Shown here in pieces: positions 1-12,305 of a stretch of DNA of 12,630 bases. Below the pieces are notes generated by a model. That model was not told where the DNA came from and ran no database searches. It saw nothing but the letters and a program-made list of their open reading frames with translations. The first letter of the stretch is position 1. Each line of letters starts with the position of its first letter. The stretch is from Candidatus Aenigmatarchaeota archaeon (GTDB lineage Archaea; Aenigmatarchaeota; Aenigmatarchaeia; CG10238-14; WAMV01): assembly GCA_015522145.1 (NCBI GenBank), contig WAMV01000018.1:1-12630 (forward strand), written 5' to 3'. The position numbers were made by a program, and so were the translations under genes.

Positions 1-252
1 GGTGGTGGGGCCTTTGGATAAGATTGTTTTGAAATTTCCTTTTAGTTTGAGTTTTTTAGTTACTTTTAGGAAAATATCTGGTCTACAGGCATCTAGGATT
101 ATTAGAAATTTCCAGTCTTGGGTAAAGATGTCTGTACCTGGGGTTAGTTTGTATATCAATCCAGACAAAACATAATTAGAAAATCCATCTCTTAAGTAGA
201 ATGGATTAATTAAATTTTTTAACCTTGGTTTCTTACCCGAAACAGTAAACAT
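1..252 (-). CDS. Alkaline phosphatase/sulfatase-superfamily protein, archaeal 'DW..LIILDACR.D' type (N-terminal 84 aa; runs off the window edge)
   Basis: Not in the ORF track. Manual translation from ATG at 252 gives MFTVSGKKPRLKNLINPFYLRDGFSNYVLSGLIYKLTPGTDIFTQDWKFLIILDACRPDIFLKVTKKLKLKGNFKTILSKGPTT, open to base 1. LIILDACR.D is the first metal-ligand strand of the AlkP/sulfatase fold, and S.G..T is the expected nucleophile region. There is an in-frame stop upstream at 268-270. Confidence 0.8.
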   Translation of the reverse strand, partial: MFTVSGKKPRLKNLINPFYLRDGFSNYVLSGLIYKLTPGTDIFTQDWKFLIILDACRPDIFLKVTKKLKLKGNFKTILSKGPTT

Positions 253-283: not shown

Positions 284-1336
284 ATGGATTTTGATTTTTC
301 TATGGTCACCACATGGAACAGAGTTGATGGGATAGCTGATTTCTCCAAACATTTGGTAAAAGGATTTGAAAAGCTTGGGAAAAGGGTGGAAATTGTAGAA
401 ATAAAAAAACCGGGGAATAAAAATCCCATTTATTGGATTAAGCTTGCTAAAAAAACAAGAAGCAAAAAAATACTAATTCAATATGAGCATGGAATTTGGG
501 GGACAAGATTTACTAATCTAGCTGTAATCCCATTCTTTCTCGTAAGTAAACTGAGAAAGAAGGAAATTTATTCTATAATACATACATACTTTATTCCAAC
601 AGGAGGATTGAAAGGATTTATAAGAAAAATAATGTACTATCCTGCCAGAAAAGTTGTTGAGCTTCTTTCTAATAAAGTTATTTTTTTGAATGAAGCCTCT
701 TATAAACTATCCAACAGTAAAAACAAAGTTTACATACCCCATGGATGTCTGGAAGAACAAGAAAGATTGAATAAAGAAAAATGTAAAAAAACATATGGGT
801 TTAGCAAAAAAGATATTGTTATAGTAATCCCAGGTTTCGTTTCTCCCTGGAAGGGTCATCAAAAGGCTATAGAATTTTTAGAATATTTGCCTCAGAACTT
901 CAAACTATTTATTGCTGGCTACATATCACATTGGAAACAAAAATTGTTTTACAAAGAACTTAAAGAATTTGTTAAGGAGAGAGGATTAAAAAACAGGGTG
1001 AAATTTTTGGATAGGTTTGTTAAAAAAAATGAATGGAAATACATCTTTAGCTTGGCAGACGTTGTGATATTTCCATATTTATTAACAACCCAAAGCGGAA
1101 TATTCAATGTAGCAATATCTTATAAAGTTCCTATAGTTGCTAGTCAACAGCCTTTTTTTGTTGAAGTTAAAAGAAAGTACGACTGTATAATTATAAGTAG
1201 TATAGAAGATTTTCCAAAAAATATTATAACTGCAATGAAAAAAGAAAAGGTGCTCGCTAAAAAATCAGAGAAATACATAAAAGAAAGAAACTGGGGTTCC
1301 ATGGCTAAAAAATTTGTTAATTTAATGGGGGTTTGA
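284..1336 (+). CDS. GT4 (GT-B fold) glycosyltransferase, mannosyltransferase-like subgroup
   Basis: Motifs: N-terminal DGIADFSKHL, QYEHGIWG, IPHG, PGFVSPWKG, ADVVIFPY..TQSG...A..Y.VPIVAS, and C-terminal RNW...A. Confidence 0.9.
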   Translation: MDFDFSMVTTWNRVDGIADFSKHLVKGFEKLGKRVEIVEIKKPGNKNPIYWIKLAKKTRSKKILIQYEHGIWGTRFTNLAVIPFFLVSKLRKKEIYSIIHTYFIPTGGLKGFIRKIMYYPARKVVELLSNKVIFLNEASYKLSNSKNKVYIPHGCLEEQERLNKEKCKKTYGFSKKDIVIVIPGFVSPWKGHQKAIEFLEYLPQNFKLFIAGYISHWKQKLFYKELKEFVKERGLKNRVKFLDRFVKKNEWKYIFSLADVVIFPYLLTTQSGIFNVAISYKVPIVASQQPFFVEVKRKYDCIIISSIEDFPKNIITAMKKEKVLAKKSEKYIKERNWGSMAKKFVNLMGV

Positions 1337-2094
1337 TGATAATCGGAATGTTTAGAAGGGCAAAAACTTACATAAGCTTAGGAAAGAGGTTGATAGATAG
1401 ACTAAGGATTATTATAATGATATCTTCTTTTTATCAAAGATTGAAGAAATTTGGTTGGCTCGGTAAAAACACTAAAGTCATCGTCAACGGCTTAGAATTT
1501 GAACTACCAGACACTGTTAGTTTTTACATACTGTTAAGCGAAAAGGAAGTAGAAAGATTGCTCAGAAAAAGAGTCAAGAAAGGTTGTGTATTTGTAGACG
1601 TAGGCGCCCACATAGGTAAATATTCCATTCTTGTAGCTACCATGTGTAAAAAAGTGTATGCTGTTGAACCGAATAGTTTAGCTCTGAAATATTTAAGATA
1701 CAATGTTAGGATAAATGGTTTGAATAATGTGAAAATTCTAAATTTTGCGGCCTGGGACAAAAATACTCAGCTTGAGTTGTTTTATCCTGGTGGGAGTGGA
1801 GGGGTTAACTTATTTAAAAGAGGTAAACTAATTCAGAAAGTTATAGCAAAAAGGCTTGACGATGTAATCAAAGATAAAGTAGATATAGTAAAGATAGATG
1901 TGGAAGGTGCGGAATACAAAGTTCTGCTTGGAATGAAAGGAATTTTGAAAAGATATAAGCCTTTACTAATTGTAGAAATACAGAACGAGAATAAGAAAAA
2001 GGTTTTTGAACTGCTAAAGAGATATTCATATAAAGGCAAAAAATTATGGAAGGGTATAGGTCAAGAGTACTGGGTATTCGAGGCCAAAAAATGA
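1336..2094 (+). CDS. FkbM-family SAM-dependent methyltransferase
   Basis: Motifs VFVDVGAHIGKYS (SAM motif I), VYAVEPN, LDD, KIDVEGAEYKVLLG and P.LIVE. The ATG at 1336 overlaps the upstream TGA (TGATG) and follows GGGGG. The track start is TTG at 1333. Confidence 0.92.
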   Translation: MIIGMFRRAKTYISLGKRLIDRLRIIIMISSFYQRLKKFGWLGKNTKVIVNGLEFELPDTVSFYILLSEKEVERLLRKRVKKGCVFVDVGAHIGKYSILVATMCKKVYAVEPNSLALKYLRYNVRINGLNNVKILNFAAWDKNTQLELFYPGGSGGVNLFKRGKLIQKVIAKRLDDVIKDKVDIVKIDVEGAEYKVLLGMKGILKRYKPLLIVEIQNENKKKVFELLKRYSYKGKKLWKGIGQEYWVFEAKK

Positions 2095-2171
2095 AAAAGA
2101 AGAAGAAAGACTGGAAAGAAATAATGAAAGAAAGGTTAAAGGATTTGGGGTATTTTGATGAAGAGGAATGA
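2091..2171 (+). CDS. Unannotated 26-aa micro-protein MKKKKKDWKEIMKERLKDLGYFDEEE (stand-alone RLxxLGY motif)
   Basis: ATGA overlap with the FkbM stop, SD-like GAGG at 2080-2083, fills the whole FkbM-cysD gap and overlaps the cysD start by 14 nt. EIMKERLKDLGYF aligns ungapped with the CysD tail EYVMQKLRALGYM. Confidence 0.7.
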   Translation: MKKKKKDWKEIMKERLKDLGYFDEEE

Positions 2172-2973
2172 ATTGCAAGAACTAGAAGCAAAAAGCATAT
2201 TCATAATAAGAGAAGCTTACAGAGTTTTTAAAAACAAAATAGCAATACTAGCTAGCTTTGGTAAAGATTCCACAACCTTGCTTTATTTGGTTAGAAAGGC
2301 TTTTCTTGGTCATGTGCCTATGCCAGTAATACACTTAGATGCTCAAACTGAGTTTGAGCAAGTTTATGAGTTTAGGGATAAGCTTGCTAAAGAATGGAAG
2401 CTTAAGCTAATCGTTGAAAAATACGGCAAAGGTATAGATGAGTCAGAAGAAGCAAAAAAAGTTTGTCATTGTACTTTATTCAAGACACAGGCTTTAAAAA
2501 GAGTTGTAGCTAAGTATGGCTTCAAAGCTTTAATAGTTGCTATAAGAAGGGACGAGCATGGCATAAGAGCTAAAGAAAGATACTTTAGCCCAAGAAAGAA
2601 TTTTACTTGGGATTATCTAAGGCAGCCACCAGAACTTTGGGAGCAATTTAACGTTTCTTTAAGCTTAAGCAAGGACATGCATATAAGAGTACATCCCATG
2701 CTTCATTGGCGCGAAATTGATGTGTGGCAATACATTAAGCAGGAGAGAATTCCAATAGTTAACCTTTATTTCTCGGGAGTAATTAAGAAAGGTTATAGAT
2801 ATCGTAGCCTTGGTTGTAAAAATTGTACTGTGCCTATACCCAGTCAGGCTAAAAACATAGATGAGATAATTGAAGAATTGAAAACCACAGAAATTGGAGA
2901 AAGAGCTGGAAGATTAAAGGGTAAAGAAAAAGAATATGTTATGCAAAAGTTAAGGGCTCTTGGCTACATGTGA
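2158..2973 (+). CDS. cysD: Sulfate adenylyltransferase (ATP sulfurylase) subunit 2
   Basis: Motifs LEAKSIFIIRE, PP-loop SFGKDST, RRDE...RAKERYFSPR, QPPELW, RVHP...W.EIDVWQYI..ERIPIVNLYF, YRSLGC, ERAGR and C-terminal LGYM. Lies directly upstream of a CysN-like GTPase. ATG at 2158 is preceded by GGGGT; the track start is TTG at 2155. Confidence 0.9.
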   Translation: MKRNELQELEAKSIFIIREAYRVFKNKIAILASFGKDSTTLLYLVRKAFLGHVPMPVIHLDAQTEFEQVYEFRDKLAKEWKLKLIVEKYGKGIDESEEAKKVCHCTLFKTQALKRVVAKYGFKALIVAIRRDEHGIRAKERYFSPRKNFTWDYLRQPPELWEQFNVSLSLSKDMHIRVHPMLHWREIDVWQYIKQERIPIVNLYFSGVIKKGYRYRSLGCKNCTVPIPSQAKNIDEIIEELKTTEIGERAGRLKGKEKEYVMQKLRALGYM

Positions 2974-2978
2974 TTTTT

Positions 2979-4157
2979 ATGTTAAGCATAGCCTTACTTG
3001 GTCATGTAGACCATGGAAAATCAACACTCATTGGAAGGCTTGTTTATGATACGAAATCATTGCCAAAAGAAAGGCTTGAGGAAATTGAGAATGTAGCAAG
3101 AGCTCTAGGCCAAAAGCTAGAGTTTGCGCATGTGGTGGATGCTTTAGAGGAAGAAAGATTAGAGCAAAAAACAATAGAAGCAAGTCAAACATTTTTTAGA
3201 ACGAAGAAAAGGGAATATGTTTTAATTGACGTGCCAGGCCATAAAGAGTACATAAAAAACATGGCTACTGGGGCAAGTTTTGCTAAGTTTGGCATACTTA
3301 TTGTAGATGTTACTAAGGGTATAGAGGAACAAACAAAGAGACATGCTTTCCTAGCAAAATTACTTGGAATAAACAATGTAATTGTGGTAATAAACAAAAT
3401 GGATCTAGTAAATTATAAAAAGAAAAAGTTTAACTTAGTTTGCAAGAAAGTTAATGAACTGCTTGAAAAACTAAAATTAAAAAAAGTTGCATGCATACCA
3501 ATTTCGGCATATTATGGAGATAACGTTGTAAAAAGAAGTAAAAAAATGGATTGGTATAGAGGAAGGACCTTAGTAGAAGTTTTAGATTCATTAAAAGAAG
3601 GGGAGGAAAAGGGAAAGACAACGCTTGTTGTTCAGGATAATTATGATGGTTTGGCATTTGCCTATTTAATTAAAGGTTCTCTACATGTTGGGCAAAAATT
3701 AACATGTTATCCTGAAAAGAAGGTTGTTAGGATTGAGGAAATTCTAGATGGTGATAAAAAAGTGAAAAGGGTTGATGCGCCTAAAGCAATAGCTATAAAA
3801 ACAAACAAAAAAGTTAAGAGAGGTGATGTTCTTTCATTATCGAAATTAAATACGAAATCAAGCTTTAGGACAAGGTTGTTCTGCTTGGATAGCAAAATAA
3901 TCGAGAATAAAAAATACAAGCTAAGGTTATTTACCCAAGAAAGAGAAGCTGAAGTTAAGAAAATAGAAAGCGTCGTATCCCTAAAAGATTTGAAAGAGAA
4001 AAAAGCAAAGCATTTGAAGTTGGGAGATATAGGCATAGTGAAACTAAGAACAAATCATAAGATTGTTTATTCAAATTTTGAAGAAATGAGAGAGCTAGCT
4101 AGATTTGTTATACTAAATAGAAAGGGTCAAATAATAGCAGGTGGTGTAATTTTTTAA
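2979..4157 (+). CDS. cysN: Sulfate adenylyltransferase subunit 1 (EF-Tu-like GTPase), no fused APS kinase domain
   Basis: G-motifs GHVDHGKSTLIGRL, DALEEER..KTI, DVPGHKEYIKNMATGAS, NKMD and ISAYYGDNVV..S..MDWY.G.TL. C-terminal RFVI...IIAGGVI. Adjacent to cysD. Alternative start is GTG at 2970. Confidence 0.88.
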   Translation: MLSIALLGHVDHGKSTLIGRLVYDTKSLPKERLEEIENVARALGQKLEFAHVVDALEEERLEQKTIEASQTFFRTKKREYVLIDVPGHKEYIKNMATGASFAKFGILIVDVTKGIEEQTKRHAFLAKLLGINNVIVVINKMDLVNYKKKKFNLVCKKVNELLEKLKLKKVACIPISAYYGDNVVKRSKKMDWYRGRTLVEVLDSLKEGEEKGKTTLVVQDNYDGLAFAYLIKGSLHVGQKLTCYPEKKVVRIEEILDGDKKVKRVDAPKAIAIKTNKKVKRGDVLSLSKLNTKSSFRTRLFCLDSKIIENKKYKLRLFTQEREAEVKKIESVVSLKDLKEKKAKHLKLGDIGIVKLRTNHKIVYSNFEEMRELARFVILNRKGQIIAGGVIF

Positions 4158-4179
4158 CTACTAAGCTTTTATTTTGATT

Positions 4180-4989
4180 ATGCAACTAGTAAGCATTAAC
4201 ATCCCAACTTTTAATTCTGGAAAAACGCTAGAGAAAACATTGGAAAGTGTTAAAAATCAAACTTACAAGAACACAGAGGTTATTGTCATAGATAGTTATA
4301 GTAAAGACAATACTGTTGAAATTGCTAAGCAATATGGCGCTAAAGTTTACTATTACAAAGGTGCTTTGCTTGGAGCAAGATATCTTGGTGTAAAAAAAAG
4401 TAAGGGTGAATATATTTTGCTATTGGACTCTGATCAAATACTGGAAAAAACAGCTGTAGCTAGAGCCGTTAAGCTAATGAAAAAATGCGATATGCTCTGG
4501 TTGGAAGAGAGAAGCTATAAACCAAAAGGTTTTTTGGAAAAAATCTATGACGCTGATAGGCAGCTGGTTCAAAAACATTACAAAGATTTTTTAAATCCTT
4601 TGGGTGGCGTTATTTTGCCTAGGTTTTTTAAGAGAAAATTGTTGCTAAAAGCTATGAATAACATTCCTAAAAACATACTGAGAATTTGCGTTGCCCACGA
4701 CCACGCTATAATTTACTATGAATGTTATAAGCTGAGTAAGAAAATAGGAAAGCTTAGTCATGCGGTCTACCATATAGAGCCTTCTAACATACTAAAATTG
4801 TTCAAGAAAACTGTTCGCTACGGTAAAACAACTAAAATGCTTGTAGAAAAAAATGTATATCCTGAGCTTCTGAAAAGTAAAGTTAGGTTTAGAAAATTTT
4901 ACAAGGAAGACTTAAGTCTTTCGATAAAAAGTATGATGCTCAGAACAATAAGAGCTGTACCTTACATGCTTGGTTATTATTTAGCTTAA
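4180..4989 (+). CDS. GT2 (GT-A fold) glycosyltransferase
   Basis: Motifs VSINIPTFNS, LESVKNQTY, VIDSYSKDNT, AR..G...SKGEYILLLDSD (DxD). ATG at 4180; the track start is TTG at 4174. Confidence 0.92.
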   Translation: MQLVSINIPTFNSGKTLEKTLESVKNQTYKNTEVIVIDSYSKDNTVEIAKQYGAKVYYYKGALLGARYLGVKKSKGEYILLLDSDQILEKTAVARAVKLMKKCDMLWLEERSYKPKGFLEKIYDADRQLVQKHYKDFLNPLGGVILPRFFKRKLLLKAMNNIPKNILRICVAHDHAIIYYECYKLSKKIGKLSHAVYHIEPSNILKLFKKTVRYGKTTKMLVEKNVYPELLKSKVRFRKFYKEDLSLSIKSMMLRTIRAVPYMLGYYLA

Positions 4990-5002
4990 AAGAATTTTAA
5001 TT

Positions 5003-6124
5003 ATGGAAGTTAGCATTGTGTCATCCTTCCCAGAGATGAATTGTGGTATCGCACAATATACCTATCAGCTTGTGAAACATTTGAGTAAAAATATATTCGT
5101 TAGGGTTTACACACATAAAGAATCGAACCCAAAGAAATTAAAGAATGTTGAGGTTGTCAAAGCATTTGATAGAAACGATTTTTTCTCTTATATAAAGCTG
5201 AAGAATTTGCTTAAGGAAGAGAAAATTGTTCATGTACAACATGAGCACGGACTTTATGGTAAATTTGGTGGTCCTTTTAACGGATTGTTTGGAATTTACC
5301 TCTTAAGGAAATTGAGAAAAGCTATAGTTACATTACATACTGTGTTTACTCCTAGTTATATCCTTGGGTATTATGATTTTTTGAAAAGGTATAATCCAAT
5401 AGTAGGAAAAACCATCCTAAGAAATTTCGTTTCTGCTGGTATTTATCTAAGAGAATTTTTAGTATTTCCCAAAAAACATGTCTACATAGTTCATTCCTAT
5501 GAACAAAAGAAAGTTCTAAATGAAAGAGGTATCAAGAATGTTTACGTAATCAGACATGGTGTGCCTGTAATAAAAAGACTAAGAAAAAGGAAAAGAAGAG
5601 AGTTAACTTTGCTCTGTTTTGGGTTTGTTGATTACAGAAAGAATTATGAGCTTGTAATCAAAGCTATGAAATTTCTGGATGCAAAACTAATCATAGCCGG
5701 TAAGGCCAATGAATCGTATTTGACCTTGCTTAAAAAATTAGCTACTAAGCATGGTGTTCAAGATAAAGTAACCTTTATCAACAAATTCCTAAGTGAAGAG
5801 GAAAAGAAAAGGATTTTTGAAAATTCTGATATATTAGTTTATCCCGTGCTTTCTATGAGTCAGAGCGGAGTGGTTTCTGATGCTATAAGCTTTAGAATTC
5901 CTGTAATAGTCGGTGCTTTTCCCTATGTAAAGGAACTTTTCCGAGAATTTGGAAATTTGGGTTATTTAATTAAATCGAATGATGAAAAAGAAATAGTGAA
6001 AGGAATAAATTTCATAACAAACAATTACAAAAAAATAAAGAATAGCCTTGAGAAGGCATATAAAGAAATAAATTGGGAAAAAACAGCTAGGAAACATTTG
6101 AAAATTTATGAGGTGTTTATGTGA
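5003..6124 (+). CDS. GT4 (GT-B fold) glycosyltransferase, same subgroup as 284..1336
   Basis: Motifs CGIAQYTYQL, HVQHEHGLYG, VTLHT, IRHG, FGFVDYRKNYE, SDILVYP..SQSGVVSDAISFRIPVI and NWEKTARKHLKIY. Confidence 0.9.
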   Translation: MEVSIVSSFPEMNCGIAQYTYQLVKHLSKNIFVRVYTHKESNPKKLKNVEVVKAFDRNDFFSYIKLKNLLKEEKIVHVQHEHGLYGKFGGPFNGLFGIYLLRKLRKAIVTLHTVFTPSYILGYYDFLKRYNPIVGKTILRNFVSAGIYLREFLVFPKKHVYIVHSYEQKKVLNERGIKNVYVIRHGVPVIKRLRKRKRRELTLLCFGFVDYRKNYELVIKAMKFLDAKLIIAGKANESYLTLLKKLATKHGVQDKVTFINKFLSEEEKKRIFENSDILVYPVLSMSQSGVVSDAISFRIPVIVGAFPYVKELFREFGNLGYLIKSNDEKEIVKGINFITNNYKKIKNSLEKAYKEINWEKTARKHLKIYEVFM

Positions 6125-6816
6125 TACTCATATTAGCGTATGATGGTCTAGAATACAATTACGTTGGGGAATTTAATCTTAAAGGACTCATGCAGAAAGA
6201 TTTTGGAAAAACCGATATTAGCGAGTTTTCTGAGCCAAGAACCATGGTTTTGTGGTCTTCTTTTTTAGCTGGAAAAAATCTAGAGAAAAGAATACTAAAG
6301 CTAAAGAACATTTGGAAGTTTAAGCTTAAGCCAAAAGAAACCTTCTTTAAACATTTCAAAAAATGGAAGGCTATAGATGTACCTGGCTTAACTCATAAAG
6401 AAGAGGAACATGAACTAGAAAGAAAGCTTTTGAAGATGTATTTTGAAGAAAATTTAAGCATAAAGGAATATGATAAAATTGTTTTCGAGCACCACAAAGA
6501 AAACAAAGAGGAATTTTTTAAATCGCTGGAAGAGGATTATGAAATAATAATGGCTTATTTTCCGTTAGCGGATTTAATCGGTCATCTAAGCTTTGGATTA
6601 AAAAGTAAGATGAGGTTAGTTTACAAAGAGTTGGAAAGCATAGCAAAAAAAGTTGAAGCTGACTTCAAGCTAATAATTTCTGACCACGGTATGAAGGCTG
6701 TTGGTAGGTATGGTGATCACAGCAATTATGGTTTTTGGTCTACCAACAAAAAGCTTGGTACTAAGAATCCTAAAATTACAGATTTTGCAACTTTAATTTT
6801 AAATTTCTCAAAATAA
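6121..6816 (+). CDS. Compact alkaline phosphatase-superfamily protein (type I phosphodiesterase/nucleotide pyrophosphatase-like)
   Basis: Metal-ligand and catalytic motifs ILAYDG, PRTMVLWSSFLAG (Thr41 at the nucleophile position), DLIGH, IISDHG and GDHS..G. The GTG start overlaps the upstream TGA, with SD GAGGTG at 6110-6115. No signal peptide or TM segment is evident. Confidence 0.85.
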   Translation: MILILAYDGLEYNYVGEFNLKGLMQKDFGKTDISEFSEPRTMVLWSSFLAGKNLEKRILKLKNIWKFKLKPKETFFKHFKKWKAIDVPGLTHKEEEHELERKLLKMYFEENLSIKEYDKIVFEHHKENKEEFFKSLEEDYEIIMAYFPLADLIGHLSFGLKSKMRLVYKELESIAKKVEADFKLIISDHGMKAVGRYGDHSNYGFWSTNKKLGTKNPKITDFATLILNFSK

Positions 6817-8230
6817 ACGATGTAAAGAATTCTACATCATTTTTGCTTATAACCTTAGAAATAATTAAAGATTTGAAATAGACAATGAATGAAAAAAGAA
6901 TAAGAATCAGCTTATAGGTTAAAGCTGCTTCTATAAAATCTATGATTAACTGAAGGAATAGAAAAATTAGCAGAGAAATTATGAAAGCAAATGTTTGTTT
7001 TTTATCAAATCTAATTCCTATTTTTTCTTCTTTTACTAAAACATAAAGAGAAAAAATTGATACAAATGAAAAGACTAACAAATATGATAGGGATGCGCCA
7101 AAAACACCATAATAATAAGTTAATGTAATCAAAACAGGTATAAATACTAGAGAAATTAGTTTCAAGTTCACTACATCTCTAATTTTACCTAGGGAGAAAA
7201 GAATAGAAGAAGTGTGCCTGAATAGTATCATGAAAAAGAATCCTATTGTTAAGGGTGCAACAAGACTGGATGCATCTAAATACTCATAAGACGATAAAAG
7301 CAAAACTATGGCATCTTGAAATACAATGAAAGATAAAATTAGCGGGAGTGAAAAAATCAATGTGTACTTTAAATAAAAGTTAAAAAGTCTAGATATTCTT
7401 GTTTTGTTCCTATAATTTCTGGAAAAAAGCGGGAAGGTTGATTGTAATAGTATTATACTGAAGATAAAGATTAGCCTAGAAGCGCTTTGTGCAAGAGAGA
7501 AAATACCTGTTGCCTGTTGTGTTATTAATAAGGGTATTATTATAAAGGGTGCTACGCTTATTACATTATCCACTAAAGCTGATATGAAATTGGTAAGTGA
7601 AAAGCTAAACAATCTTTTTTTGAGTTTGGAAATTTCTCTTCCTGGCTTTTCAAAAACAAAAAGAACGGCCAAAGAAAAAAACAATACATATGCTACAAAA
7701 ACTATGGTCGGTGTGATTCTATACAGGAAGGCAAGCAAAACAACAGAAGCTAAAATTAGAGAATATCTAAAAACGTTAGAAATGAATAATCTATTCATTC
7801 TTTGGAGTCCATAGTTAAAAGCATAGAACACATTAAAAATAGCTGTAGCTGGTATGAATAAAGCTATTAAAAATACGATTGTTCTGGGCAATTTCAAGTA
7901 GAAAGATAATAAGCCAGATAGAAGAGCTGTTATAAAAGCAAACGTAATAGAGGTTATCAAAACAAATCTAAATGTTATAGATAAGTACGCTTTTACTCTT
8001 CTGAAATTTCTCTCTTCCGCTATTAACTTGTTTAAAGCTCCTGGCAATCCAAATAAAGAAAGAAATGATAAAAAGTAAGCTATGTTTAAGGCGGTTGAAA
8101 AAATGCCTAGATCTGCTGGACTCATGAACTTTGCAAGAATTATTTTTAGCACCATTACAAACCCAAATAAGAAAAAGGTATTCAAGCTTAAGAAAAACAA
8201 ATTATAAGCTAACTGTTCTCTCAATTTCAT
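6776..8230 (-). CDS. Wzx/RfbX-like oligosaccharide flippase (MOP superfamily)
   Basis: 484 aa with roughly 12-14 hydrophobic segments. Motifs ILAKFMSPADLGIFS, FGLPGALNKLIAE, GIFSLAQS, FPLFSR and YYYGVFGASLS are typical of polysaccharide-export flippases. Confidence 0.85.
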   Translation of the reverse strand: MKLREQLAYNLFFLSLNTFFLFGFVMVLKIILAKFMSPADLGIFSTALNIAYFLSFLSLFGLPGALNKLIAEERNFRRVKAYLSITFRFVLITSITFAFITALLSGLLSFYLKLPRTIVFLIALFIPATAIFNVFYAFNYGLQRMNRLFISNVFRYSLILASVVLLAFLYRITPTIVFVAYVLFFSLAVLFVFEKPGREISKLKKRLFSFSLTNFISALVDNVISVAPFIIIPLLITQQATGIFSLAQSASRLIFIFSIILLQSTFPLFSRNYRNKTRISRLFNFYLKYTLIFSLPLILSFIVFQDAIVLLLSSYEYLDASSLVAPLTIGFFFMILFRHTSSILFSLGKIRDVVNLKLISLVFIPVLITLTYYYGVFGASLSYLLVFSFVSIFSLYVLVKEEKIGIRFDKKQTFAFIISLLIFLFLQLIIDFIEAALTYKLILILFSFIVYFKSLIISKVISKNDVEFFTSFILRNLKLKLQNL

Positions 8231-8691
8231 AACTTAATCTTCTTAGTGATCAAATAATAAATTGATGACACTATCACCAAGCTTGCTAGTATGTCAGAAG
8301 GGTAATGGACTGCCAGAAATATTAATGTAAGCGGTAAAGCTATCAAGAAAATGTAAAATAGCAGGCTTTTTCTATCTAAAAATAAGGCAACAGAAAAGTA
8401 TATGACTGAATGCAAGCTTGGGAAGCTTGGATCATTTTCTTTCTCAACCAAAGGTATTAAATTAAGTTCTACGTATGGTCTAGCCCTATTAACAGAAAAT
8501 TTCAAGCCTACTCCAATAAGAGCTGAAATCATTAAAACTAAAAGAAATTTCTTGAGTTTTTCATCCCGAAAAAAGTAGAGACATATGATTGGTATGAAAT
8601 AGCTTGAATAATAGATTAGCGCGAAGAAATCTGCTAATAGCTTGTTTTGGATTAGTAAATTGTAGAGTGCTTCCACCACTAATTGCTCCAT
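8227..8691 (-). CDS. PAP2-family membrane phosphatase (putative polyprenyl/dolichyl-pyrophosphate phosphatase), variant motifs
   Basis: Motif 1 KFSVNRARP (Kx6RP), motif 2 SFPSLHS, motif 3 LIFLAVHYPSD, plus hydrophobic helices. Coupled to the flippase by an ATGA overlap. Confidence 0.8.
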   Translation of the reverse strand: MEQLVVEALYNLLIQNKLLADFFALIYYSSYFIPIICLYFFRDEKLKKFLLVLMISALIGVGLKFSVNRARPYVELNLIPLVEKENDPSFPSLHSVIYFSVALFLDRKSLLFYIFLIALPLTLIFLAVHYPSDILASLVIVSSIYYLITKKIKL

Positions 8692-11351
8692 AATATTTCT
8701 TTTACTTTTTCTTTACCTTTATAGAAGTATATTGGACCGTTGCATTTAATACATCTCCCGCTTAGCGTAATTGTTTCATAAGTTTCGTTACAATATGAAC
8801 AGACGAAACCGTCAAAACCAATAACTTTCTTAGCTTTACCATTATTTACTATAGAGCTCAAACTTAACTGTTTGCCCAAATTTAATATGTCTTGCCTTTT
8901 GTAGCCTAATGCCTCAAAAACTCTTTCTAATGGTGGTAATATTTGAGATTCTAAATAGTACTGGGAATCTATTTTGAGATTGTTTTGTTTAACGTATTCT
9001 GGATCCTCTGCCCTCTTAGAGACCATTTGGGGGCCTTGTATAATTACGTAGCCGACTCTATCTCCTATACCAGGTATGTTTGCCACTCCCCTTTTCTTTA
9101 GCTTTTTTACAAGCTCTATATGTGGTTGCACACCTTTGTACAAGTGCAGTGGTCTTGATATGCTTTTGTAAATAACAAGCTTGTCTATAGGTATCTCATT
9201 ATTTTGTAGTTTTTGAATTACATCTCTTATGTATAACAAAGCCTTTTCTGGTTTTTCCTCTTTAAGAATAATTTCCAATATTTTCTCGAGCGTTTCTTCC
9301 GTTAACGTGCACCAATCCCTACGCACAGTTTCTATTCCCTTCATTACTATTTTTTCTTTGTAGCCTGTGTCGCTTTTCTCTAGCGATAAGCCAGCATATC
9401 TCTTTTTAGAAAGTATAAGCAAAGTTTTGAAAACACTTTCTATCTTCATCTTAACTACACCTAGCTCGCTGTTTATTAGCTCAGCTAGCTCTTCTCCTAT
9501 TTTGAAAAGTTTCTCTATATCTTCTGTGTCTGCTTTTATCATTACGCTATCTGTATCGCCATAAACAACTTTATAGTTTGTTTTGGTTTCTACAATGGTT
9601 TTGGTTTTAGAAATTAGAAATCTGCCTGATGCAGTTATAGCATTAGCTATGTCAAGCAAATAAAGCCTAGCCCTTAAATAGCCTGTATAGCCATAGAAAG
9701 CATTGGCTAGTATTTTAAGAGCAAGCTGTTCCGCATTTAAGGCCTGCTTAACTTTTTCATTCTTTTCTTTCTTTAGCTTTTTCTTAACTTTGTTTCTACT
9801 TTCAATTAATTGCCTAAGAATTTTTGGGAATATTCCTTCCCTAACTTTCTTAGAAACGAATTTTACTTTATTAGGTGCTTCTATTGTTTCAACGTCATAC
9901 TTTTTTGTTAAAATTGTTGTCGGGCAAATGTTATAACCTATGATTATGTTTGGGTACATTGATGCAAAGTCAAGATAAATAACGTTTTTATGAAAACCAA
10001 CTACAGGGTCAAGAACTAAAGCACCTTTAAGCCCCTTCAAGCTTCTTTCCTCAGTTCTCTTCATAACTTCTTTATCGCTTGGTTTTAAAGGTACAACAAA
10101 ACCGTGTTTATCAAATTCCCTAATTAATAAAATTTCCAACCTGCTTGCCTCACCACCATCCAAAACATCTTGCAATAAGGCACCAGATACTCTAGACAGT
10201 GCTAAATACGTATCTATAAGCTTTAGAGTATTGAATACCTTGTAAGTAATTTCTGAGTCTTTTATTGCGTAATCAACAAGCTTCCTTAATTCTTCCTTAC
10301 TTCCTTTTTCCCAAATTTCCTTTATTTGGCTGTGAGGTATGTCTATTTTACCCTCACCAATTATCTGCTCAGCAACATCTCCCAAACCAAATCGCTTAAA
10401 CCTTAACATACCTTTTTTATTATATTCCTGTAGAATTGGATACGGATCTACTACTATTCTGCCTGGCACATTAACCCTTTCTGTTTGACCAAATTTTTTA
10501 TGAACCGCGGGCTTTGTCGAGCATCTACCAAGGGTTTTTGGCAACTTGTTTTTCTCCAGCCTTTTTAACAAGAAAGGGAAGTCGAAGCGCAAAATGTTGT
10601 AACCAAGAATTATGTCAGGATCGTAGCTATCAACAATGTTTAGGAATTCTTTTAGCATTTCCTTCTCACTCTCAAAGGATAAAATGTTATCACCATTTAT
10701 CTTTTTAGTTGCTACCAAAGCCAATTTTCTTTTCTTTTTATAAGGCGGGTCAAAATATAGGCTTATGATTATGATTTCTGTGTTCTCTGGATCAGGCAGG
10801 CCTTCGCTAGCAGCCTCTATGTCGAAAGTTAGTATCCTAAACTTGCTTTCTTTAGGCTCAATTTCTTTTATCTTTTTTAGAGTTAGTTTTATCTTAGCTT
10901 TGACGTTTTGGGTATTGACTGGTATGCCCTCAACCTCATACCATCTTGACCCAAACAAACCGTAATCTATCATAAACCTGTACCTAAAAAGAATGTCTGC
11001 CTCGTAAGCTTCTTTAACCAAACCAGAAGATAGTAGCTTTTCTTTAACCTTAGGTACTTTGGATGGATCGCTTAAGGTTATTTTTAGTAACTTTACTTTT
11101 TCTGGGTTATAGCCAATTGGTAGAAATTTCTTGACTTCCTCAACGTTGACTATTAAATTATTAAACTCCTTTTTCAGAAATTCAGAAATTTCTTTATCTT
11201 TAACCTTTGGCAAAACGTAGAAATAAGGTAAGAATCCTTCATGAAAACATACAACACTTTTACCATCTTCCGTCTTGCCAAAAATCCTTATGACTGGGTG
11301 GCCATTAGGCAAGATATAATCACAATCAAGCAACTGAAAGGCCACCCTCAT
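8679..11351 (-). CDS. polB: Family B DNA polymerase with 3'-5' exonuclease and an extra C-terminal Cys4 zinc finger
   Basis: ExoI TFDIE, ExoII GYNILRFDFPFL, ExoIII YAIKDS. Polymerase motifs DFASMYP, QLALKILANAFYG, YGDTDS, KKRYAG and KGIETVRRDWC are all intact, with no intein. C-terminal CSYC-x12-CIKC. Confidence 0.97.
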   Translation of the reverse strand: MRVAFQLLDCDYILPNGHPVIRIFGKTEDGKSVVCFHEGFLPYFYVLPKVKDKEISEFLKKEFNNLIVNVEEVKKFLPIGYNPEKVKLLKITLSDPSKVPKVKEKLLSSGLVKEAYEADILFRYRFMIDYGLFGSRWYEVEGIPVNTQNVKAKIKLTLKKIKEIEPKESKFRILTFDIEAASEGLPDPENTEIIIISLYFDPPYKKKRKLALVATKKINGDNILSFESEKEMLKEFLNIVDSYDPDIILGYNILRFDFPFLLKRLEKNKLPKTLGRCSTKPAVHKKFGQTERVNVPGRIVVDPYPILQEYNKKGMLRFKRFGLGDVAEQIIGEGKIDIPHSQIKEIWEKGSKEELRKLVDYAIKDSEITYKVFNTLKLIDTYLALSRVSGALLQDVLDGGEASRLEILLIREFDKHGFVVPLKPSDKEVMKRTEERSLKGLKGALVLDPVVGFHKNVIYLDFASMYPNIIIGYNICPTTILTKKYDVETIEAPNKVKFVSKKVREGIFPKILRQLIESRNKVKKKLKKEKNEKVKQALNAEQLALKILANAFYGYTGYLRARLYLLDIANAITASGRFLISKTKTIVETKTNYKVVYGDTDSVMIKADTEDIEKLFKIGEELAELINSELGVVKMKIESVFKTLLILSKKRYAGLSLEKSDTGYKEKIVMKGIETVRRDWCTLTEETLEKILEIILKEEKPEKALLYIRDVIQKLQNNEIPIDKLVIYKSISRPLHLYKGVQPHIELVKKLKKRGVANIPGIGDRVGYVIIQGPQMVSKRAEDPEYVKQNNLKIDSQYYLESQILPPLERVFEALGYKRQDILNLGKQLSLSSIVNNGKAKKVIGFDGFVCSYCNETYETITLSGRCIKCNGPIYFYKGKEKVKEILWSN

Positions 11352-11372
11352 GAAATTAAAATTTCTAATAGC

Positions 11373-12305
11373 TTATTTAATGATTTCATGTTTTGAGAGG
11401 TTAATTTCACAACTTTTTAAATTTATTCCATACAGATGAACGTTCTTATAGTTTTTGTAGAAATTTTCCTTTGATTTAACAATTATGACGTCTGGAATTG
11501 TGTCAAGCATTAGAGGATCTTCCTTATAATAAAAAAGCTTTGGGTTCAGATGTCTTTTCTCAAGTAGTATAGACAAGGTTTCTAATAAGCTAAGCTTCCA
11601 TTTTTTGGAAATTTGGGTTATTAATGCTTCGTCTAAAAAAAGAAATTTGTATCCAAGATAATTGAGTATGGCAAATTTCCCAACTTTGATTAAAGAATCC
11701 TTTATTTCATAGGGCTTCTCAAACTTAACATGGAAATTTCCCGCTTCTCTGTTAATACCTATGGAGAAATTTAACTCTTTAGCTTTTTTCTCAAAACCTA
11801 AAAATTTAATTTGTTTTAGTTTATTGTTGGAAATTTTGAACACAGCTACATCATTTGTTTCAAGTATATCATAATTTTTAACATTATCAACGGAAATTTC
11901 CAAACTACCTGTTAAATCCTCTATAATTAAGGAATCCACGCTCTTATCAACAACCATAGCTAGGGTTTGGAAATTTCCCATAGTTTTACCTTTATCTATT
12001 GATACTAGCTGGAAAGCAAATTTCTTACTGGCTATTTTTTGAAATTTCTTAAACCTTTCTATAAGCAAAGTTTGTATTTCTTCAACTTTTGTTAGCTTAC
12101 CATTAAGTAGTTTAACGAATTCAGGTTTAGATTTCCTGCTCAAATATTGTAAAAAATGCTTTTCTGTTATGAAAATTTCTTTAACGTTAGATGTAATAAA
12201 GTTGAAGAATTCATCTAGCTCTTCTGTAGGTAATTTTTCTAAAACATCCTTGGTTATTTGATACCCTCTTTCTAGAAATTTCCTAATAATTTTTTGCTTA
12301 TCCAT
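11373..12305 (-). CDS. Shortened, catalytically inactive homolog of PolD small subunit DP1 / polymerase B-subunit
   Basis: DP1-like N-terminus (IIRKFLERGYQIT), helix ERFKKFQKI, OB-fold strands (TLAMVVDK...IIEDLTGSLEI...NDVAVF) and C-terminal LLEKRHLNP...DPLMLDTIPDVIIV, recalling DP1 LL.kRHLAP...D.LvI...PD. The calcineurin-like metal motifs (DxH, GDxxDG, GNHD, GHxH) are absent. Confidence 0.7.
   Translation of the reverse strand: MDKQKIIRKFLERGYQITKDVLEKLPTEELDEFFNFITSNVKEIFITEKHFLQYLSRKSKPEFVKLLNGKLTKVEEIQTLLIERFKKFQKIASKKFAFQLVSIDKGKTMGNFQTLAMVVDKSVDSLIIEDLTGSLEISVDNVKNYDILETNDVAVFKISNNKLKQIKFLGFEKKAKELNFSIGINREAGNFHVKFEKPYEIKDSLIKVGKFAILNYLGYKFLFLDEALITQISKKWKLSLLETLSILLEKRHLNPKLFYYKEDPLMLDTIPDVIIVKSKENFYKNYKNVHLYGINLKSCEINLSKHEIIK

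Follow-up and report, generated by a model that had tools for sequence, protein, structure and literature searches.

What could a protein of 26 residues contribute to a cluster in which a methyltransferase gene, the genes of an ATP sulfurylase and several glycosyltransferase genes stand side by side? The question is raised by the window analysed here, a stretch of 12,630 nucleotides that is the whole of contig C18 in an archaeal assembly (G000) of 323 kb and 81% completeness. The sequencing runs containing the sequence of the window are mostly hydrothermal vent metagenomes, and the close homologues of its proteins carry Aenigmarchaeota and Micrarchaeota names, which points to a DPANN archaeon. 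The frame in question (2091..2171, forward strand) begins with the ATG at 2091, ends with the TGA at 2169-2171 and encodes MKKKKKDWKEIMKERLKDLGYFDEEE, in which K, R, D or E occupies 16 of the 26 residues and a hydrophobic run is absent. Its conserved core, EIMKERLKDLGYF (2118..2156, forward strand), aligns with the stand-alone peptide of genome G002 whose complex is modelled below. A sequence-only reading of the locus had taken the frame for a free-standing form of a C-terminal RLxxLGY tail, which could be supplied in trans as a docking adaptor, compete with the tail of CysD, or act as a Tyr-based sulfuryl shuttle.

The micro-ORF is preceded by the genes of a GT4 glycosyltransferase (284..1336, forward strand; PF00534) and an FkbM-family methyltransferase (1333..2094, forward strand; PF05050). 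It is followed on the same strand by those of CysD (2158..2973), of a CysN-like GTPase subunit without fused APS kinase (2970..4157; the best models are CysN-type and score below their cut-offs), of GT2 and GT4 glycosyltransferases (4174..6124; PF00535, PF00534) and of a small AlkP/NPP-type enzyme (6121..6816), while a polysaccharide flippase (6776..8230; PF01943) is encoded on the minus strand. Further along the minus strand, at 8679-12305, the PolB gene is preceded by that of a 310-residue protein that apparently lacks most of its middle and has weak matches to both ends of the DNA polymerase D small subunit.

The micro-ORF is most likely a gene

The start of the micro-ORF shares the tetranucleotide ATGA with the stop codon of the FkbM gene (2092-2094), and its end overlaps cysD (ATG at 2158) by 14 nt, both as the sequence-only reading had described. 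The ATGA (-4) arrangement is the commonest gene junction in the genome, with 17 cases, and translation of the micro-ORF is likely coupled to termination of the FkbM gene. The junction (2080..2094, forward strand; 5 spanning contigs) further comprises an A6 run at 2086-2091 and, at 2080-2083, the SD-like GAGG that had been pointed out. The GAGG is present, but it is weak evidence for a ribosome site, as an upstream GAGG is found for 21 of the 247 long ORFs against a background of 2.9%.

Five substitutions between strains fall within the micro-ORF (2111, 2136, 2141, 2165 and 2168). All of them are synonymous in its frame, and two alter CysD in the overlap. With 24 of the 75 possible transitions in the micro-ORF being synonymous, five out of five corresponds to p ~0.003 when each substituted site is counted once. 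One variant contig has AAA inserted in frame after 2099. In three variant contigs, a variant at 2079 creates a stop in the 15-codon extension upstream of the ATG, so that the start is placed at 2091. The database protein at this locus is a 41-residue form that includes the non-coding extension, and its start at 2046 was dismissed on account of the same stop. The frame is thus intact and under purifying selection across strains, as expected of a small coding gene, and most likely it is a real one. Genes of such shortness are easily missed or miscalled. No family of Pfam or NCBIfam matched the micro-protein, and a search of the ESM Atlas gave a single lead at 0.75, under the 0.9 level, to an unnamed cluster of 23-residue proteins with 85 members.

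Lying in the -1 frame right behind the A6 run, the micro-ORF might instead encode the C-terminus of the FkbM protein, either because an error in the assembly separates the two or because ribosomes slip by -1 at C_AAA_AAA. One extra A at 2086-2091, which the sequence-only reading had named among the results that would refute it, is absent. None of the 5 spanning contigs, which come from four runs (X2, X3, X5 and X6) of two studies, has a single-base indel in the A6 run, and the assembly-error version is refuted at the DNA level in those runs. Run X1, possibly the source of the assembly, yielded no close contig at this place. Moreover, the FkbM protein is complete at the usual C-terminus of its family, an LGY tail is found at the end of none of its 104 homologues, and the stand-alone relatives of the peptide follow unrelated genes. 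We consider an origin from FkbM extremely improbable, which leaves room at most for slippage at a low level.

Stand-alone relatives of the peptide

A C-terminal [RK]LxxLGY occurs three times in the 323-kb assembly, namely in the micro-ORF, in CysD and in a start-less frame of 20 codons on contig C7, while 12 Markov resamples, taken as the chance level, averaged 0.58, or ~0.0004 per 200 bp. When the tail profile was searched in 301 genomes of the phylum, 53 were tail-positive, and seven of these (G000, G002, G258, G101, G147, G092 and G125) have stand-alone copies of 23-41 residues, which were identified by reading the profile matches in short open frames. The copy of G125 has its 3' end at the contig edge and lies directly after a tail-less NPP gene. 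Matches in G207 (contig C83) and G328 were excluded from the count for lying at contig edges. A 23-residue ORF of G047 (L132 4893-4964), which ends in KLKELGYEKIN amid ribosomal-protein genes and is probably unrelated, was excluded as doubtful. In a sample of Thermoproteota, 24 of 251 genomes were tail-positive, and no clear stand-alone copy was seen among 30 loci.

In the metagenome locus L186 the peptide precedes cysD, in the order of the window, and several of the stand-alone relatives have a GGTGG or GAGGTGA site of their own and are not coupled to cysD. Database proteins of 24-53 residues, known without gene context, match the stand-alone pattern as well. The N-termini of the stand-alone forms range from Lys-rich to acidic, and the only part that is kept is K/E-x-R-L-x-x-L-G-Y. 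The Lys-rich start and acidic end of the window peptide, once regarded as a feature, turned out to be incidental, as several relatives are acidic at the N-terminus and the DEEE end falls within the overlap with cysD.

The motif also occurs as a structural element of larger proteins. A sequence search of the PDB gave no significant match to the tail. The best relevant entry was 7YQ0 (E 0.43), the APS kinase of A. fulgidus, where the RLxxLGY-like match lies in the C-terminal helix of the core. The top matches among 1.84 billion sequences were repeat proteins with an RLxxLGY helix cap, which we take to be of the peptidoglycan-binding type, and they were set aside as instances of a common helix cap.

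The tail tracks sulfate activation

Fused forms of the tail are found on several unrelated proteins. Counted by BLAST label with fragments included, and biased by the many loci that were fetched via the tail itself, the tail is present on 106 of 110 RHH regulators, 51 of 103 CysD, 8 of 44 CysC, 4 of 37 NPP-type enzymes, 2 of 27 sulfatase-type enzymes and 2 of 8 small AlkP enzymes, and in the fetched loci on none of 84 CysN, 20 Sat and 11 TauE. The commonest carrier is the RHH regulator, a point absent from the sequence-only reading. All 20 complete RHH proteins that were located via adjacency to cysD alone, a subset free of this bias, end in LGY, and the Tyr is found in 100 of 100 RHH tails overall, a set partly selected by the motif; about half of the RHH tails extend beyond the region of the Tyr. 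In another unbiased subset, the tailed RHH genes recovered through their tail and nothing else, 64 of 90 lie within 2 kb of sat, cysD, cysC or cysN, and 27 of 90 lie beside Sat. Since tailed RHH genes adjoin Sat too, the tail tracks sulfate activation rather than CysD. TauE was considered as a universal partner of the tail and rejected, being present in only 10 of 90 cases and not found in G000.

Like the RHH regulators, the window peptide combines an EExIKxRLxxLGY tail with a place beside an ATP sulfurylase gene. The alignment between them covers the tail only (profile positions 52-75), and the RHH domain is absent from the peptide. It is conceivable that the peptide is the leftover of an RHH-tail regulator that lost its DNA-binding domain, or of an AlkP gene that was split, and that its main use is to hand ribosomes on from FkbM to cysD or to compete passively. 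It sits just upstream of cysD, where 17 of the 32 loci with an LGY-type cysD have an RHH-tail gene, no such gene was found in G000 (81% complete), and the ORF overlaps both of its neighbours. However, five synonymous substitutions out of five reflect more constraint on the amino acids than the mere opening of a frame requires, G002 retains a stand-alone peptide together with an RHH gene, and other stand-alone copies have their own ribosome sites uncoupled from cysD. Taken together, a remnant or decoy of this kind appears unlikely.

The tail of CysD

CysD, the catalytic subunit of ATP sulfurylase (NF003587 over cut-off), ends in an LGY tail at 2932-2970. As had been proposed, the core of the peptide aligns with it without gaps, and 5 of 13 positions match (E, L, L, G and Y). 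Residues G269 and Y270 of CysD are invariant in 55 sequences, and the terminal GY is invariant in canonical bacterial CysD as well. The tail of the window CysD is homologous to the KKRQGYF end of CysD from P. syringae (1ZUN), in which the tail region is not ordered and the alignment ends at residue 211. In the model of the window CysD the core is of high confidence and the helix of low confidence, with pLDDT of 65/65/57 over residues 251-271, which is consistent with the tail being a mobile helix arm. The model superimposes on the PAPS reductase 2OQ2 (residues 11-270 with 28-253, Z 20.6, rmsd 2.5, 205 aligned), and the aligned range extends to the C-terminal arm. The arm of CysD would thus resemble those of APS/PAPS reductases (2OQ2, 2GOY) in belonging to the same fold and lying at its end. 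The reductase arms end in ECG[LI]H, with the catalytic Cys in the ECGLH sequence, whereas the arm of CysD ends in the LGY that is common to unrelated proteins. In some loci (L005, L006, L041 8817-9587), a second paralogue of the PAPS-reductase family ends in RLRDLGY, not ECGLH, and adjoins an NPP enzyme. The stretches fetched from G016 and G043 show no cysN next to the RLRDLGY paralogue.

As the peptide adjoins cysD and has the same tail as CysD, it might bind where the CysD tail itself docks, on CysD or CysN, and tune the activity of ATP sulfurylase. Such a role would fit the invariance of the terminal GY down to canonical bacterial CysD, the lack of order of the tail region in 1ZUN and the extension of the 2OQ2 alignment over the arm. 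Three observations stand against it. The 27 tailed RHH genes beside Sat adjoin sulfurylases without CysD or CysN. A second tailed ORF is present in 18 of 32 loci with LGY-type cysD but in none of 47 canonical bacterial cysD loci (L087, a frameshifted LGY-type cysD, was excluded from the latter). Finally, the CysD tail is not placed with confidence on the monomer model. We regard modulation of CysDN by the peptide as highly unlikely. The earlier idea of competition with the CysD tail is accordingly weaker at CysD or CysN, because tailed regulators adjoin Sat-type sulfurylases that lack CysD, CysN and the tail, and it is plausible at the AlkP site described below, which both tails could occupy.

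The cysD genes of related loci show further variation. Those of L141, L142 and L222 (G177, G169 and G178) have long in-frame inserts, probably inteins, giving open frames of 659-743 residues, and in G002 and G081 (L135 7521-8408; L127 4903-5793) a related ORF of ~295 residues, endonuclease-like by eye, lies between cysD and cysN. A conserved ORF of 92-101 residues to which Pfam assigns no family immediately precedes cysD in L014 (785-1063) and in 22 more of the 32 LGY-type cysD loci, mostly of Micrarchaeota.

The tail is predicted to dock on an AlkP-fold enzyme

The enzyme encoded at 6121..6816 is a soluble protein of 231 residues with an intact AlkP/NPP metal site (D8, T41, D151, H155, D188, H189, H200), including Thr41. 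It ends without a tail, which confirms the observation of the sequence-only reading, and it is the predicted partner of the free tail. Pfam left the window copy unmatched and assigned PF01663 to most of its homologues, a profile search matched it to an NPP-family neighbour at 93.7%, and a PDB search with the profile of the small AlkP gave no hit at E<=0.01. A second AlkP-core enzyme, a candidate glycan sulfotransferase and candidate partner, is represented in the window by its N-terminal part at 1..252 (minus strand). Contig C4 ends in a matching C-terminal part (12765-12908, minus strand), which is tail-less and follows a glycosyltransferase, and the contig ends do not overlap. We infer that it continues the gene at 1-252, and since the gene seems to continue on C4, it is probable that the glycan cluster extends over the two contigs. 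As the NPP on contig C19 also ends without a tail, all three AlkP-fold proteins found in the genome are tail-less, which leaves CysD and the peptide as the only sources of the tail found in the assembly.

Relatives of these enzymes can carry the tail in cis. It is present on two of nine aligned relatives of the small AlkP, both distant and in G072, on none of 120 close homologues, and on a relative of the 1-252 enzyme in G092. The small AlkP family occurs in 18 genomes, of which 16 are tail-positive.

To describe how a free tail may meet its partner, we refer to the complex modelled for G002, which pairs a stand-alone peptide of 36 residues with a small AlkP identical to that of the window at 155 of 230 positions. 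The complex scored 0.93 compared with 0.12 for the best control, with 100% contact agreement between runs and a partner pLDDT of at least 85. The mark of 0.93 was reached by 116 of 157 solved pairs and 2 of 215 mismatched pairs, a calibration that holds only roughly for the analyst-built alignments used here. In the model, the peptide contacts residues 38-41, 63-66, 102-109, 156 and 197-203 of the enzyme, which make up its active-site face, and the tail lies over Thr41, His156 and His203. The contacts on the side of the peptide are I26, R29, L30, L33 and Y35, which correspond to M12, R15, L16, L19 and Y21 of the window micro-protein. Tyr35 touches His156, a predicted zinc ligand, and it is Leu33, not Tyr35, that is on Thr41. 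The contact residues of the enzyme are identical in the window copy at 17 of 19 positions, and conservation is 0.84 at the interface versus 0.64 elsewhere. The model supports docking of the tail on the AlkP active site. It speaks to placement, neither to affinity nor to function, and a cap over the site could equally inhibit the enzyme.

A proposed cap supplied in trans for glycan sulfation

That AlkP-fold proteins sulfate N-glycans in archaea was shown in 2025, when deletion and heterologous expression assigned the sulfation of N-glycan sugars in Halobacterium salinarum to the AlkP-core proteins Agl30 (VNG1056C) and Agl31 (VNG1057C) (PMC11980604). In the passages covered here and the Discussion of that study, neither a donor nor a tail is mentioned, and the mechanism is likewise absent from these parts. 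The reverse cloning primers given there translate to the C-termini HLEDLGYL and LEELGYT for Agl30 and Agl31, and the primer for VNG1063H translates to KELGYIE. Agl30 and Agl31 were active with C-terminal tags (PMC11980604), so the tail need not be at the very end of a protein, as in the LGYFDEEE of the window peptide. We liken the window enzymes to Agl30 and Agl31 by fold and not as orthologues. Both pairs have an AlkP core and stand in a glycosylation cluster, and the window enzymes have the metal ligands and Ser/Thr nucleophile of this type; Agl30 and Agl31 have LxxLGY in cis, whereas in the window tail-less enzymes are accompanied by the tail as a separate gene. The proposal that the tail is supplied to the AlkP enzyme in trans is thus supported by the two fused small AlkPs among nine, by Agl30 and Agl31, and by the modelled pair of G002.

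The use of sulfate in these archaea was surveyed in 41 CysD genomes, which are 74-92% complete and related to each other, so that the census is a pattern and not a statistical test. A strong full-length APS kinase was found in 2 of the 41, weak partial profile matches (E<=0.001) in 15 and none in 24; the lack of a clear APS kinase in most of them had escaped the sequence-only reading. Sulfotransfer_3 matches occur in 4, of which 3 are over the cut-off, and sulfite reductase was found in none. The NPP family is present in 38 of the 41, compared with 14 of 50 CysD-negative relatives. In G000 (81% complete), neither an APS kinase (PF01583) nor a PAPS-dependent sulfotransferase was found. As no APS kinase, sulfite reductase or PAPS sulfotransferase was found, the AlkP-fold enzymes become candidates for users of APS.

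We argue, with a probability of roughly 55%, that the peptide serves APS-fed glycan sulfation by lending tail-less AlkP enzymes a cap or docking arm in trans. CysDN would produce APS, and the AlkP-fold enzymes would spend it to sulfate the glycan made by the neighbouring glycosyltransferases. The free helix-Leu-Gly-Tyr tail could dock on the 6121-6816 enzyme so as to cover its two-metal active site, complete or gate that site, and so give in trans the cap that sulfotransferases of the Agl30/Agl31 type have in cis. The tail in general could be a common docking arm of AlkP-fold enzymes, which on CysD or CysC would bring the donor-making enzyme to the AlkP site and on RHH proteins would link the occupancy of the site to transcription. 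It would tie AlkP-fold sulfotransferases to sulfate-activating enzymes and a probable regulator, and it might explain why these reduced archaea maintain a costly ATP sulfurylase though in most of them no APS kinase or sulfite reductase is seen. The free form of 26 residues is also the smallest possible reagent for the tail and can be synthesized.

Several observations weigh against a cap supplied in trans. RLxxLGY is also a common helix cap, as in the repeat proteins and 7YQ0. The small-AlkP family is absent from 37 of the 53 tail-positive genomes, where other types of AlkP would have to be the partner. No AlkP gene is seen in the part fetched of Sat/DHH/CysC operons such as L176 and L202, and G092 holds a stand-alone peptide together with a tailed AlkP-core enzyme. 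In addition, weak partial matches to APS kinase occur in 15 of the 41 CysD genomes, which are 74-92% complete, and the usual target of NPP-type enzymes is phosphorus rather than sulfur.

Sulfate-activation clusters and AlkP sulfotransferases are already published. In Pyrococcus yayanosii, pych_17520-17560 form a copG-sat-pApase-NPP-cysC cluster; the authors, in the parts covered here, find no sulfotransferase or sulfite reductase in that organism and guess that the NPP is a pyrophosphatase (PMC8268124). With its small RHH regulator, ATP sulfurylase and NPP-type enzyme, as described in those parts, this cluster resembles the loci with tailed RHH genes; it has Sat, APS kinase and PAP phosphatase, whereas the window has CysDN and no RHH domain. 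The same parts contain no mention of a tail or a stand-alone peptide for the cluster. The literature searched, which consisted of titles and abstract starts with few subscription papers and no supplements, mentions neither the tail common to these proteins nor its occurrence as a free peptide, and likewise neither the predicted seat on the active site nor the missing clear APS kinase.

Could the tyrosine carry sulfate?

A covalent shuttle would share the docking with a cap supplied in trans and add a chemical step, in which the invariant Tyr is sulfated from APS at one AlkP site and passed to the AlkP that sulfates the glycan. The precedent is found in acyl transfer. DltX is a membrane microprotein with an FxYxxF motif that works between MBOAT and SGNH enzymes, and PatA-type MBOAT proteins have a C-terminal acyl-shuttle motif whose Tyr carries acyl groups, according to the parts covered of PMC12148441. 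Going by those parts, the LGY tail resembles DltX and PatA in being a short Tyr motif that occurs as a free microprotein or fused to a pathway enzyme. Unlike DltX, the window peptide is soluble, has LxxLGY and not FxYxxF, lacks a transmembrane helix and has a predicted partner of the AlkP fold; a Pfam scan of the 14 window ORFs found no MBOAT or SGNH partner. The HbYX motif that opens the proteasome gate has its Tyr in the penultimate position, after a hydrophobic residue, and identity with a gate motif or degron of this kind was rejected since the Tyr of the window peptide is sixth from the end and follows Gly. By its sequence, the peptide is to be placed outside the DltX, RHH and HbYX groups.

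The shuttle is suggested by the presence of the Tyr in 20 of 20 RHH tails found by adjacency to cysD, 100 of 100 RHH tails overall and 55 of 55 CysD. It is further suggested by the modelled position of Tyr35 beside the predicted zinc ligand His156, by the parallel between free and fused forms of the tail and DltX and PatA (PMC12148441, in the parts covered), by the missing clear APS kinase in 39 of 41 CysD genomes and by a predicted lipoprotein AlkP enzyme (L210) that ends in the tail. However, the model lists Leu33 and not Tyr35 on Thr41, and Tyr also dominates in LGY caps whose role is purely structural. Attack by NPP-type enzymes is normally on phosphorus and not sulfur, the tails of DNA-binding proteins are more simply explained as docking tags, a membrane anchor is absent from the peptide, and no donor is named in the parts covered of PMC11980604. 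We consider a shuttle of this kind rather unlikely, though it is the strongest of the alternatives.

Extended to the whole pathway, a speculation to which we give comparably little weight, surface sulfation would be independent of PAPS. CysDN would make APS, a tail-less AlkP would load the Tyr, the sulfo-Tyr tail would be the donor for AlkP-fold glycan sulfotransferases, and RHH tails would read the loading. If true, the sulfo-Tyr tail would do for sulfate what DltX does for acyl groups and would fill the vacant place of the donor in archaeal N-glycan sulfation, and a peptide whose Tyr carries sulfate would be categorically new.

Doubled tails were also observed. Some APS kinases (P0108, P0041, P0075, L197, L203 and L208) have the motif twice, in their own last helix and in a copy after a linker, and the single proteins P0073 and P0076 have two tails each. 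Operons often contain two distinct tailed RHH genes next to each other, as in L127, L138, L139, L150, L164 and L183. In L131 (9212-9502), a protein of 96 residues that ends in the tail, and that is presumably DUF2061-like from its appearance, heads a TauE-cysD-cysN operon.
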